Virus record (IMG/VR): IMGVR_UViG_3300044655_001017
Length of the DNA stretch: 64,000 nucleotides
From: a virus
Taxonomy: Duplodnaviria; Caudoviricetes
Direction: 5' to 3' (one strand)
The notes under the pieces were generated by a model. It was not told where the DNA came from, ran no database searches, and saw only the letters and a program-made list of their open reading frames with translations. The position numbers and the translations under genes are program-made. The number at the start of each line of letters is the position of its first letter. The stretch's first letter is position 1. Below are positions 14,850 to 63,143 of this stretch, one piece after another.

Positions 14850-16124
14850 GACCTCGATTAATAAATAGCTGCCGATTTGAACCTACACATCTGCAACAAT
14901 TCTTGTTACCAAGTTGAGAATGATCATTTGGCTGGAGACTACCTAAGTTAAAATCAGGAAATCTTGCCGACACTAATTCTTTTATCTTGGCATACGATAG
15001 TTCTTGGCCTTTATATGGTTGTAAGGCAACTAAAATCATATCATGATTTGTTAGCTTCATTCTGTAACTCCTGTGCTTTTTGTTTCAATGCTTCAATTCT
15101 ATGAAAGAAATCCTCACTAAGAGGAGTTATCTGATTGTTGTAATTTATGTAATCTTCAAGTGCCTTGATTACATTGTTTTCAAATACTTCGCTCTTGAGC
15201 ACAGGGCCTCCTAATTGATTGTAAAATATCCAGTGCGTTTACCTTTTAGTGTATAGAAACACGCATATCGCCTACCTGGTTCATACGTGTCACTGTTAGC
15301 AGTTGCGTATACGATAAGTTCTAAGTTAGGACCACGTTCTTGCATATGAGGTCCATCTAATGTTACTTTACCATTGTGAGGTAAGTCTGTTTCAGCAATA
15401 CGAATCTTGTAGTTGTCAACTTCTACGATACGTTTCTTTACAACTGGCTTTTTAACTTTAGCGTCTGCCATTATTCGTTCTCCTCAAAGTAACATTCTGG
15501 AATCATATCGTCAATGTTGAATTCTTCTTTCAACAGTTCTTCTAATGTTTCTGGATCAATGCGATCAAGTAACAACTTAATCATATACACTGGTTCAACT
15601 ACACCATCAGCTACCATTGCTACTACTGCATCTCTTGCACTGTAGGATGTTGTTGTTTCATCTGGGCGAATATAATCAGTATACTCAACTTTTGTAGCTT
15701 TTAAACGATCTGCAAGTAACAAGAATTCTGCGCAATGTTCTGACACATACCATGTGTCATCTTTTATTAAATAGAAAAACTCAGAATCATCATACCAATC
15801 TACAAACTCATGTTCAGATGCAAACTCATGTGCTTCAATATCATCTTCGTTGCGATCGCGTCCGTAAAACTCAGTATCTTCAATTGTTTCGCCTAATGAG
15901 CTTATGTCACCTAGATCACATAAATCGCCTACACCAATTAAGTCATAGTTCTCAATAAGTGTTTTACCAACATGTGATAAGTATCCGTCCCAATGACAAT
16001 ATACTGCACGGACAGTACCATCGTTTCTCATATAACCAATTGCGCTACGTGTTGCCATGTTATGCTCCTGTATATACAGCAGGGCCTTGCTTGCTGTAGT
16101 GTTTAAAAAAATATAGTATAACAA
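14827..16124 (-). other. hypothetical genes 14827-15060, 15211-15471, 15471-16124
   Basis: 15471-16124 carries MATRSAIG...VYCHWDGY, a widespread phage motif. Confidence 0.65.
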
Positions 16125-16145
16125 CTATTTGTTGATTTGTAAAGA

Positions 16146-16418
16146 CTATTTTACTTCACGTACCGGAACTGCCTTATTCTGCATAGCCGGTTCAACTTTA
16201 AAGAAATAATTGTTTTCATAATAAGCTTCTAAAGGCATTGTAGTTGTAGACGAATATTGCCATTCGTCTACCGTAGGTAACCTCCAATCATTATGCCCAT
16301 TATGATTACAGGTAAGGCAATACAGCCAAGCCTCTTCATAGTTGTTTACTATACGTGGCGGAGCACGATCAATCTTATAATCAATAATCATATGTCCCTT
16401 ACTGGTTGGCAGAACCAC
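16146..16418 (-). CDS. WRLPT/DUF1566-like mini protein
   Basis: YEEAWLYC...DWRLPT...VPVREVK. Confidence 0.78.
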   Translation of the reverse strand: MVLPTSKGHMIIDYKIDRAPPRIVNNYEEAWLYCLTCNHNGHNDWRLPTVDEWQYSSTTTMPLEAYYENNYFFKVEPAMQNKAVPVREVK

Positions 16419-16597
16419 TCTAGTTCCAGTTCTGGAAATCTATCTTCAAACCAACTCATTGTTATTTTAGAAGTTTCATATTCTCGATAAGTTGGCAATC
16501 GCCAATCTTTATGCCCATTATAGTCAAGTGTTAGGCAGTGCAGCCAAGCTTGGTCATGACTCATATCTTTTTCTATTTTTGGTGCATATTCAATCAT
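16388..16597 (-). CDS. WRLPT/DUF1566-like mini protein
   Basis: HDQAWLHC...DWRLPT...QPVRDI. Confidence 0.78.
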   Translation of the reverse strand: MIEYAPKIEKDMSHDQAWLHCLTLDYNGHKDWRLPTYREYETSKITMSWFEDRFPELELEWFCQPVRDI

Positions 16598-17106
16598 TTT
16601 ATATCCCTTACTGGTCTAACGTATAGGCCACCGTGGAACTTAAAGTTAGGGTATCTGCTACCATTTTCAAAACTCTGACTCCAAGCAGTATCTACACTTT
16701 GTTCATTAGAAGCCCAGTATCGACCACTACGAAAATCATTATCTGATTCATAGATTTGATTTAGTTCTTCTTTTGTTGGAAGTCGCCAATCAGTTTTTCC
16801 ATCAAAGTTAAGAAATAAACAATATGTTCGTGCAGTATCCCAACTACATGACTCCTCGGCAGATTTTGGTGCTATTTCAATATTCATATTATTCTCTTCT
16901 ACCGACCATTCTACATAGTCAATCAAATTTTGAATATCGCTGCGTAGGACTGTTGCACGGCATTGCCATTGATTATTCTCGGTTACGAGTTTGTCTTCGA
17001 GTGATTCAGAAGTAGCTAAAAGATTATTGAGTTTTAGTATTAGGATTTCTTTATGTGATAGGGATTTTCTCATCGTAGTTCTCCAGTTAAGTTTTGCATA
17101 TGGCAA
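16594..17106 (-). CDS. full-length DUF1566 domain fused to an unrelated N-terminal segment
   Basis: WDTARTYC...DWRLPTKEEL...YWASNE...AWSQSFENG...YVRPVRD. Confidence 0.85.
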   Translation of the reverse strand: MPYAKLNWRTTMRKSLSHKEILILKLNNLLATSESLEDKLVTENNQWQCRATVLRSDIQNLIDYVEWSVEENNMNIEIAPKSAEESCSWDTARTYCLFLNFDGKTDWRLPTKEELNQIYESDNDFRSGRYWASNEQSVDTAWSQSFENGSRYPNFKFHGGLYVRPVRDIK

Positions 17107-17114
17107 TTATCAGT

Positions 17115-17147
17115 TCAAGCACCGTTAGGTGCGACTTCAAAGTTCAT
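17115..17147 (-). pseudogene. 5' stub of a WRLPT-family gene (MNFEVAPNGA*)
   Basis: Matches the MNFEIAPRDKW start of the paralog at 17751; TGA sits at the Trp11 position. Confidence 0.6.
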
Positions 17148-17437
17148 ATTATGTCCCTTATTGCTCTAACGTAGTAGCTGCCGCCGTTCTTACTGGAGCT
17201 GAACTGGGTGCCACTGGTGAAAACCTGACCCCAGGCGCTGCTGCCATTGTACTCAGTAGAGGACCAGTAGTAGGCATCAATGAAATCATTTTTTGAATGG
17301 TAGATATAATCTAATTCCTCTTTAGTAGGCAGTCTCCATCCTTTCTTTCCATCTATTTCAAGAAAAAAACAATACATAACTGCTTCATCCCACGTGGCTT
17401 GTATCTCCGTTGTTTTTGGTGCTATTTCAATATTCAT
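17144..17437 (-). CDS. DUF1566 (C-type lectin fold) protein with DGR variable-repeat-like 3' end
   Basis: WDEAVMYC...WRLPTKEEL...YYWSSTEY...AWGQVFTSG...K...YVRAIRD; 35 consecutive codons (17171-17275) with no A in third position. Confidence 0.9.
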   Translation of the reverse strand: MNIEIAPKTTEIQATWDEAVMYCFFLEIDGKKGWRLPTKEELDYIYHSKNDFIDAYYWSSTEYNGSSAWGQVFTSGTQFSSSKNGGSYYVRAIRDII

Positions 17438-17781
17438 GTTATGTCCCTTACTGGAATCGCAGTAAACAGTTCGTCAAGATCAAAGTCGTCAACGGTATCT
17501 TCGTGTGTCCAAAACCCCCAATGATCAGCATCAAACCAATAGGAATTAAACTCCTCTAACTCTGGAAGGACTTCGGGATTCTCAAAATCATTACCCGGAT
17601 CTACTGTGTTTACTAACATGTCAGCTTCTTCATTAGTTGGCAATCGCCATCCTTTCTTTCCATCAATTTCAAGGAATAGGCAATACATTGCTCCTTGGTC
17701 GTAAGGAGTGTCTGCTAACCATTTGTCGCGTGGTGCTATTTCAAAGTTCATTTTATGTCCCTCACAGGTTTTACATACCAC
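17434..17781 (-). CDS. WRLPT/DUF1566-like mini protein (likely start MNFEIAP at 17751)
   Basis: YDQGAMYC...GWRLPT...IPVRDIT. Confidence 0.8.
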   Translation of the reverse strand: MVCKTCEGHKMNFEIAPRDKWLADTPYDQGAMYCLFLEIDGKKGWRLPTNEEADMLVNTVDPGNDFENPEVLPELEEFNSYWFDADHWGFWTHEDTVDDFDLDELFTAIPVRDIT

Positions 17782-17990
17782 TTGCGTTTAGTAATCTCAG
17801 CATCTTTATACCAAGAGTTCCCATCTACAAATTCATGAAAGGTCGGAAGTCGCCATCCTTTCTTACCATTGTAAGTAAACCAGAAGCAATACATTATTGC
17901 TTCATCATAAGTCATTTTGTTTTCGGATCTTGGTCCATGTTCTACGTGTGCCATAGTTATGTACTCCGTAAGGTTTGTAAATAAAAACAT
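17748..17990 (-). CDS. WRLPT/DUF1566-like mini protein
   Basis: YDEAIMYC...GWRLPT...KPVRDIK. Confidence 0.8.
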   Translation of the reverse strand: MFLFTNLTEYITMAHVEHGPRSENKMTYDEAIMYCFWFTYNGKKGWRLPTFHEFVDGNSWYKDAEITKRKWYVKPVRDIK

Positions 17991-18027
17991 ATTATAGCAA
18001 AATATTTATTAGTAAGCAAATGGTAAT

Positions 18028-18246
18028 TTAGTCAGAGTCCCGCACTGGGGTTACTTTGAAAAGATCAGATGTTGATGATCTAACATCATCTTGATGCCAT
18101 CCCCATATTTTGACAGAAGAATTATATTCTTCTCTTGTAGGTAGTCTCCATCCTTTTTTGCCGTCTACAATAAGAAAAAAGCAGTACATCATTGCTTCAT
18201 CGTATGTAAATTGTTTATCAATTGTTGGTAATATTTCTATGCTCAT
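18028..18246 (-). CDS. WRLPT/DUF1566-like mini protein
   Basis: YDEAMMYC...GWRLPT...TPVRDSD. Confidence 0.8.
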   Translation of the reverse strand: MSIEILPTIDKQFTYDEAMMYCFFLIVDGKKGWRLPTREEYNSSVKIWGWHQDDVRSSTSDLFKVTPVRDSD

Positions 18247-56553: not shown

Positions 56554-57648
56554 ATGAGTGAAGAACAATATAATTTAGGTGAACACACTAACTACTTGTC
56601 TAGAAAGTTATTTCTAGACGGTACCGTTACAATTCAACGATTTGAAGAAGTACGGTATCCGCGTATTCAAAAATATGAAGCTACTGCTAGAGGTTTCTTT
56701 TGGACACCAGAAGAAATATCATTAAGTAAAGATGCTAACGATTTTAAAGATGCGAGTGATGCAGTTAAGCATATATTCACTAGTAACTTACTAAGACAAA
56801 CTGCATTAGATAGTTTGCAAGGCCGCGGACCTACACAAGTGTTTACACCTGTAGTAAGTGTACCTGAAGCAGAACTGCTAATGCTTAACTGGGGCTTCTA
56901 TGAGTCAAATATTCATAGTCGCAGTTATAGCCATATTATTCGTAATATCTATAACATTCCAAAAGAGATATTTAACACTATACATGATACTAAAGAAATT
57001 GTTGACATGGCAAGTAGTGTTGGCAAATACTACAATAGATTGCATAAACTTAACTGTCAAAAAGAACTTGGTATTGAAGTTCTTGAAAGAGACCACATTA
57101 AAGCTATTTGGCTTGCACTACACGCAAGTTATGCATTAGAAGCATTCCGATTTATGGTATCATTTGCTACTAGTTTAGCAATGGTCGAAAACAGGCTGTT
57201 TATTGGTAACGGTAATATTATTGCATTAATTTTACAAGACGAGCTGTTACACAAAGAGTGGACTGCTTATATGATCAATTTGGTAATAAAAGATGATCCG
57301 CGTTTTACCGAAATTAAAGCAGAGTGCGAAGAAATAGTGTATAATATGTACTTAGATGTGATTAGAGAAGAAAAAGAATGGGCAGATTACTTATTCTTAA
57401 AAGGTCCAGTAATTGGACTTAATGCTAACATCTTAAAAGAATTTGTTGACTATACTGCAGTACACGCTTTAAAAGAAGTTGGTATTAAGTATCGCGAAAC
57501 AGCTCCTAAATCAACACCTATACCGTGGTTTAACAAACATTCCGACCCGAGTAAAAAGCAAACTGCTTTACAAGAATCTGAAAGTGTTAACTACGTTATT
57601 GGCGTTATGAGTGACGAATTAGATTATGACGAATTACCAACATTGTAA
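56554..57648 (+). CDS. nrdB: ribonucleotide reductase class Ia beta subunit
   Basis: FFWTPEEI, QTALDSLQGR, ESNIHSRSY, LEAFRF, DELLH, QESESVNY. Confidence 0.97.
   Translation: MSEEQYNLGEHTNYLSRKLFLDGTVTIQRFEEVRYPRIQKYEATARGFFWTPEEISLSKDANDFKDASDAVKHIFTSNLLRQTALDSLQGRGPTQVFTPVVSVPEAELLMLNWGFYESNIHSRSYSHIIRNIYNIPKEIFNTIHDTKEIVDMASSVGKYYNRLHKLNCQKELGIEVLERDHIKAIWLALHASYALEAFRFMVSFATSLAMVENRLFIGNGNIIALILQDELLHKEWTAYMINLVIKDDPRFTEIKAECEEIVYNMYLDVIREEKEWADYLFLKGPVIGLNANILKEFVDYTAVHALKEVGIKYRETAPKSTPIPWFNKHSDPSKKQTALQESESVNYVIGVMSDELDYDELPTL

Positions 57649-61841: not shown

Positions 61842-63143
<1,302 letters not shown>

Follow-up and report, generated by a model that had tools for sequence, protein, structure and literature searches.

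How does a phage gene come to end in what looks like the variable repeat (VR) of a diversity-generating retroelement (DGR), when neither a reverse transcriptase (RT) nor a template repeat (TR) is seen in the surrounding DNA? An earlier note, made from the letters alone, raised this question for a stretch of 64,000 nucleotides from a virus of the Caudoviricetes (IMG/VR record IMGVR_UViG_3300044655_001017; hereafter the window). The 35 codons that it had singled out read directly as the exact reverse complement of window positions 17171-17275, and they are in frame with a minus-strand gene of 97 aa (Table 1). Their third positions comprise 22 C, 7 T, 6 G and no A, as had been stated, and the tract has a GC content of 57% over its 105 nt (64 of 114 nt when three further codons are counted); the window as a whole has 36.5%. 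The GC-poor 5' half is likewise real, with 34% GC in the first 150 nt of the gene versus 50% in the remainder, and in bins of 100 nt the GC content reaches 55% at 17150-17249 versus 31-45% in the surrounding bins.

The codon signal of the tract exceeds chance by a wide margin. Sliding a 35-codon frame along all open reading frames of at least 60 aa in the window gave 17,813 frames, with a mean of 4.8 third-position C per frame (standard deviation 2.9); 22 third-position C were found in 25 of these frames and a complete lack of third-position A in 125. Outside the 97-aa gene, such frames are almost all antisense, at 21.1-21.4 kb and 62.4-62.7 kb, to a pair of genes rich in repeats, with a single stray frame at 1704. 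Neither region is a further VR: 21108-21404 (+) is an antisense frame of an Ala/Glu-rich gene of 359 aa, and 62373-62771 (-) is an antisense frame of a collagen-like GDTG-repeat gene (61842-63143).

The protein that carries the tract matches the Pfam family Lcl_C (PF07603) with 49.9 bits, over a cut-off of 34.9 (E 4.7e-13). The AlphaFold2 model, for which 30 homologues were used, reaches a pLDDT of 92.7, and its top match in the PDB is the C-terminal domain of Legionella Lcl (8q4e; TM 0.85, 27% identity), followed by C-type lectin-like domains. The GC-rich tract makes up the final five strands of the modeled lectin fold, and the VR occupies codons 55-92 of 97, at the 3' end of the reading frame and within the C-type-lectin-fold domain. 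About 60 homologues, 95-105 aa long, came up in a protein search. Their N-terminal half is conserved and the C-terminal part follows the scaffold YYWSSTE..G..AW.Q....G.Q....K.....VRAIR, at whose variable positions N, Y, S, G and D abound. Since the fold is that of a lectin and neither a signal peptide nor an anchor is evident in the sequence, the 97-aa binders are predicted to act as soluble ligand-binding modules.

The gene belongs to a minus-strand tandem array of many small paralogues with a common GWRLPT motif, most of the others being shorter and without the C-terminal half. Its order differs between relatives: the window has genes of 97, 170 and 69 aa where the 158-kb ENA scaffold that carries the positional orthologue (L023) has 168, 96 and 69 aa, and the order in a further locus, L125, is also unlike that of the window, which indicates that the array is being reshuffled. 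The short remnant of another array member that adjoins the gene (Table 1) is probably a scar of such rearrangement; a hairpin with a 5-bp stem, GCACC-TAAC-GGTGC, lies inside it at 17119-17132.

Table 1. Features of the VR-bearing gene and its immediate surroundings in the window.
Feature	Coordinates	Strand	Basis or remark
Lcl_C/DUF1566 minimal C-type-lectin-fold gene, 97 aa	17144..17437	-	Open reading frame, Pfam and predicted structure
TR-derived variable repeat, 113 nt, codon 55 to second base of codon 92	17163..17275	-	Comparison with TR
Upstream end of the patch, codons 50-54, AAT GAT TTC ATT GAT	17276..17290	-	Codon-by-codon comparison
The gene's own 3' end, ..A ATA AGG GAC ATA ATA TGA	17144..17162	-	L023-like, without AGATCAA
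10-codon remnant of another array member, MNFEVAPNGA and stop	17115..17147	-	Overlaps the stop of the VR gene via ATGA
Neighboring Lcl_C paralogue, 170 aa	16594..17106	-	Pfam Lcl_C, 57.2 bits

Within the 64-kb window the claim that there is no RT or template was borne out. When both strands were scanned with mismatches allowed at adenines, and with an nhmmer profile, the only returns for the TR were the VR itself and a tract of the 170-aa paralogue (16594-16750 in the adenine-tolerant scan, 59% identity). The latter was rejected as a TR on its poor fit; the VR-like tract of this gene (16601-16740, GC 0.41) has 19 non-adenine mismatches to the TR described below and fits no known TR allele. Searches by tblastn with the Brt and Avd proteins of BPP-1 gave no true match in the window, in G001 or in G002. 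A weak, spurious match to the BPP-1 RT at window positions 57211-57300 falls within a gene of 364 aa (56554-57648, +) which, from its sequence, we take to encode a ribonucleotide reductase small subunit.

The same holds for the relatives of the window's phage. The nearest record, G001 (88.6 kb), is 91-94% identical to the window at the nucleotide level; it carries this gene too, with a VR that does not differ, and lacks an RT. G003, a complete genome of 372 kb with terminal repeats and no RT, is collinear with the window at 73-84% nucleotide identity. Searches with PF00078 found no RT in G001, G002, G003, G004 or G005, and in G001, G003, G004 and G005 neither a TR nor an RT was found. The phage GenBank collection held no near match to window positions 16000-19500.

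A template came to light in metagenome assemblies. We derived a TR-specific pattern from the VRs of relatives by placing adenine at each varying site; it had no match in IMG/VR and matched exactly one contig, L054, in the JGI metagenomes. On its minus strand this contig carries, in order, the 3' end of a target gene with its VR, an Avd-like gene (116 aa), a TR and an RT. The TR translates as FVGNNYWSSTENNGNNAWNQNFNNGNQNNNNKNNGNNYVRAT, with its core at L054:835-947. The gene between target and TR matches PF22296 (bAvd); an identical Avd protein is indexed in 30 collection blocks, and an RVT_1 gene adjoins it in all 23 contigs read. The RT begins about 3 nt past the end of the TR homology, matches PF00078 (RVT_1) and carries the motifs IGNLSSQ and YVDD. 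The form [LIV]GxxxSQ is a mark of DGR RTs.

The earlier note had written out part of the template it expected from the window's codons and proposed a metagenome search for it next to an RT and avd. That search succeeded with L054, and over the part written out the real TR differs from the prediction in a single codon (GGC in place of AAC). The note had also placed the template elsewhere, in the phage, its host or a co-infecting element; it is found in the Avd-TR-RT cassette of another element, a related jumbo phage from the same lakes. TR alleles of two kinds occur, an F-type (..QNFNNG..) and an M-type (..QNMNNG.. or ..QNMSNG..). The cognate VR of L054 (L054:1671-1822, -) is one codon shorter than its TR (L054:825-956, -), between AAG and GTT AGA, and the TR of L117 has one additional AAC codon, so length varies within this DGR family.

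Beyond this cassette, both specific and general scans of IMG/VR for the scaffold returned coding VRs only and no TR, and patterns for F-, M- and L-type TRs (the last for a VR type described below) had no match in 185,579 species genomes, which leaves the host-encoded option of the earlier note unsupported. A protein search with the TR reading frame returned generic DUF1566-class TR frames, none of which is tied to the window's phage.

Comparison of the window with the L054 template reveals the relationship expected of a DGR product. Between window 17163-17275 and the TR core, 23 of the 113 bases differ, all at TR adenines in codon positions 1 and 2 (12 changed to G, 7 to T and 4 to C); the other 25 of the 48 TR adenines are kept, and non-adenine mismatches are zero over the 113 nt. 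The approximate hypergeometric probability of such an adenine-only pattern is P = 5e-11. Two control pairs behave in the same way, the target gene of L115 against its own TR and the L010 VR against an M-type TR each having 22 adenine mismatches and no others. Third positions tell the two parts of the gene apart: compared with the L010 gene, codons 1-54 of the window gene have 22 third-position and 17 first- or second-position differences, and codons 50-91 have 2 and 21, respectively, with all scaffold codons identical. The F- and M-type TR alleles account for the only third-position differences between these two VRs.

These observations bear on the proposal that the tract owes nothing to a DGR and was acquired from a GC-rich donor as an ordinary fragment, or reflects a codon bias that arose as selection diversified the lectin loops. 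A local jump in GC content, taken alone, is compatible with horizontal acquisition, but the mismatches are confined to the adenines of a TR that lies beside an RT and an Avd gene, the synonymous sites of the scaffold codons are identical despite the 22 third-position differences in codons 1-54, and the cassette and the donor-type phages are themselves AT-rich, at 37-39% GC. The adenine-only fit and the control VRs refute this reading, which we regard as extremely improbable. The VR signature that had been read from the gene is thus upheld, and a DGR origin of 17163-17275 is very likely, close to certain.

To which phage, then, does the cassette belong? In L115, the genes that lie upstream of the cassette share 88% protein identity with G002:19619-20689, and the gene past the island in L114 matches a tail-fiber-like gene of G002 (1482 aa). 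In G002 itself (327 kb, 92% complete) the two genes that flank the island abut at 19610/19613 and the island is absent. Because the flanks match G002 genes that abut at this point, the cassette is, as judged from gene content and order, an accessory island of G002-like freshwater jumbo phages beside a tail-fiber gene. The island is about 9 kb long and holds the target with its VR, Avd, TR and RT together with genes for a sulfotransferase, a glycosyl/methyltransferase, a 2OG-Fe(II) oxygenase and others; one G002-like scaffold, L113, opens with the cassette and spans 271,688 bp. In L113:1-10752, L114 and L115 the island encodes a glycosyl/methyltransferase fusion of 905 aa, and in L113 also a protein of 330 aa with two Lcl_C domains, each of which has a VR-like end.

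The window's phage, itself a freshwater jumbo phage, is a distant relative of this group, with about 46% amino-acid identity to G002 and a nucleotide match over 6% of the window. In samples that contain both, contig depth, a crude measure, is 6-40 times lower for cassette contigs than for window contigs: 33 versus 190 in run X3, which is a possible source sample, 3-5 versus 155 in run X20, and 2-4 versus 21 in run X10. This is moderate evidence that the cassette lies on a genome other than the window's, and no second full-length TR-like contig at the window's depth was seen among the assembled contigs of the shared samples. Given the depth contrast, and since the window, G001 and the complete G003 yielded neither a TR nor an RT, we provisionally conclude that both are absent from the window's own genome. 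VR-like genes number about 20 in G002, and all of them are coding; their non-adenine mismatches to known TR alleles range from 3 to 21. Each was considered as a possible TR and rejected, all being open frames and none A-rich enough.

If the DGR resides elsewhere, the window VR might nonetheless be under continuing diversification. Its sequence is identical across at least 12 assemblies in which the flanks differ by up to about 8%, and 51 collection blocks index a protein of exactly this 97-aa sequence, on contigs of up to 372 kb. Seven more contigs have 0-3 base differences from the window gene (positions 42, 45 and 282), none of them in the VR, with flanks 91.6-99.8% identical. In four more runs, SNPs are present in the flanks and none at 17163-17275, and no contig in these runs joins the window flanks to a different VR; the variation was judged on assembled contigs, which drop rare variants. 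Minor contigs of low depth that match 17219-17274 were rejected as variants, as their match stops at the 5' edge of the VR and they represent the VRs of other genes. The homologue search turned up a single protein with a window-type backbone, which has 98% identity and an unchanged VR.

The L022-type backbone, represented by L010, L021 and L022, has at least three VR versions. L021 and L022, from two metagenomes, are alike in their flanks to the base; their 13 differences all fall in codon positions 1 and 2 and in the 3' half of the VR, which is the footprint of mutagenic retrohoming from a common template. The two backbones also differ downstream of the VR. The cognate VR of the cassette is followed by AGATCAA and a 7-bp GC hairpin. 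AGATCAA also comes after the L022-type VRs and after most of the VRs with a close fit to a known TR, which suggests that it is part of the initiation-of-mutagenic-homing (IMH) signal. The window VR has neither element on its 3' side, where the 5-bp hairpin of the gene remnant is the only one present. A different conserved hairpin, GCGAGYRCCGNTAGGYRCGAGCC, occurs in 23 copies in G002 (L031-L047; e.g. 240264-240290 and 324724-324750), often after the final gene of a paralogue array, with compensatory changes in its stem (GCTCC/GGAGC, GCACC/GGTGC and GTGCC/GGCAC); it is absent from the window and was rejected as a feature of the window VR.

This contrast weighs on the reading that the window VR is a live target, diversified by a DGR elsewhere in its own genome or in trans from a co-infecting G002-like cassette. 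In its favor is the exact fit to the TR, without the 3-21 non-adenine mismatches seen in the VRs of the DGR-less G002; DGR-positive relatives are present in the same samples, and rare variants are invisible in contigs. There are also VRs on a third scaffold, the L-type (TGG TCG TCT .. GGT .. TTA/TTG TCG/TCC .. GGG), at L023:10148-10270 and L127:123-812, both within the lineage of the window and among related small genes; an L-type TR was not found in IMG/VR or in the species genomes. Because such VRs occur there and no matching TR was found, an unseen DGR in the window's lineage is possible. Against a live target stand the constancy of the consensus VR on diverged backgrounds, contigs in which the window flanks are never joined to a different VR, the missing AGATCAA that marks cognate and L022-type VRs, the lack of an RT in the complete relative G003, and the lack of any TR-like contig at the window's depth. 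We consider continuing diversification of the window gene unlikely. The suggestion that the segment is a current or recent DGR target therefore stands as to a DGR product and is unsupported as to 'current', given the identity of the VR in at least 12 assemblies, the missing AGATCAA and the failure of the searches to find a TR or RT in this lineage.

The bases around the VR suggest how it arrived. Codons 1-49 and the last five codons of the window gene follow L023. The segment between, which opens at codon 50 and runs into the first bases of codon 92, matches L022 without a difference. Over codons 50-54 the window has the L022-type sequence given in Table 1 where L023 reads AAT GAT TTT GTT GTT; at the site of ATT GAT the TR reads GTT GGT and L023 reads GTT GTT. 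ATT GAT is common to all three VR versions on the L022 backbone and absent from L023 and the L-type relatives. As it lies beyond the reach of adenine mutagenesis, and as the same 23 substitutions are implausible twice, these data argue that the patch moved between genes as DNA. L022 is collinear with G002 at 89% nucleotide identity, and G001 matches L022 across this one gene only, which places the donor type in the DGR-bearing lineage. The missing AGATCAA in the window's 3' flank fits arrival by recombination rather than homing at the site. The recombination boundaries rest on few diagnostic bases, four on the 5' side, with the 3' side ambiguous; these four upstream bases, which match another paralogue and not the TR, point to gene conversion, and the window gene itself may never have been retrohomed.

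An opposite history would have mutagenic retrohoming strike the window gene directly, in trans or in a DGR-bearing ancestor, with a later transfer of the product to the G002-like lineage. The TR-derived tract does end very near the boundaries of the patch, and DGRs with several or remote targets exist. Such a history is nevertheless hard to reconcile with ATT GAT, which is native to the donor type and consists of non-TR bases that cannot come by homing, and two independent events could not reach the same 23 substitutions; we judge it quite improbable.

Our preferred reading, which we hold to be likely, is that a DGR wrote the cassette which the window VR represents, that gene conversion brought it in, and that it is now static. 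In G002-like phages, error-prone cDNA made from the TR evidently rewrote the lectin-fold binding face of the cognate target, and small paralogues of 97 aa were evidently rewritten too, such as the last array gene upstream of a ClpA-like gene (L010, L021, L022). A version identical to that of L022 would then have been transferred, as a patch that spans codons 50-92 (about 125 nt), into a different paralogue at the orthologous position in the lineage of the window, by homologous recombination or gene conversion, presumably during co-infection, replacing a VR on an L-type scaffold like that of L023. The patch would now be a fixed allele that gives one minimal C-type-lectin member of the array a new ligand-binding surface and is not re-diversified. 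The fallback offered in the earlier note, a fragment acquired from a high-GC donor, is right about the borrowed fragment and wrong about a GC-rich genome, as the cassette contig has 37.5% GC; the GC content of the patch stems from the DGR scaffold and from mutated AAC codons.

Taken together, these results indicate that DGR-written sequence can outlive and outtravel its retroelement. A DGR signature could be read from a single gene, and the template predicted from that gene was then found elsewhere. Surveys that demand an RT on the same contig miss such VRs and count G002-like genomes, with their ~20 VR-like genes, as DGR-free. As a side result, DGR-made sequence appears to circulate among RT-less jumbo phages; a limited literature search found no paper on such circulation in this group. 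The data point to a two-layer repertoire in large lake phages, in which dozens of germline copies of a lectin-fold binder are kept and some are refreshed by a DGR and then exchanged among phages. More tentatively, a DGR borne by a minority of phages could serve as a shared source of diversity, from which adenine-mutagenized cassettes of about 125 nt spread to the lectin arrays of RT-less relatives; this spread may reach phages of about 46% identity, by gene conversion or by homing in trans during co-infection. If so, most carriers of DGR-written binding surfaces would never encode an RT.

Among known proteins the closest parallel to the window gene is Lcl of Legionella pneumophila (8q4e; PF07603), which is its top structural match and whose Pfam family it matches above the cut-off. 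Lcl is a bacterial surface adhesin with a collagen-like region, whereas the phage protein is a 97-aa domain with no evident signal peptide or anchor. The system as a whole resembles the DGR of phage BPP-1 (mtd VR1, bbp7/avd, TR, brt) in the order of the L054 cassette, a target with a 3'-terminal VR followed by Avd, TR and RT, as well as in the adenine-only differences between TR and VR, the AAY-based variable codons and the C-type-lectin fold of the target. It differs from BPP-1 in that no TR or RT was found for the window VR in its own lineage (window, G001 and G003), that the window gene is a stand-alone domain in an array of small genes and not a tail-fiber protein, and that this gene is without variation between assemblies.

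Examples of multi-target DGRs whose remote VRs lie in DUF1566 or CLec proteins are known from Treponema (TvpA), Legionella (LdtA) and cyanobacteria. As in these, one TR family here matches the VRs of several paralogous genes, and the scaffold is of the DUF1566 class (YWSSTE..AW.Q.F..G.Q....K), for which many TR reading frames occur in metagenomes. The targets of those systems lie in the genome of the RT, whereas here near-perfect VRs are found in genomes without a cassette, namely G002 (at least three non-adenine mismatches) and the window (none), and at least one VR appears to have passed from one phage to another despite an amino-acid identity between them of only about 46%.
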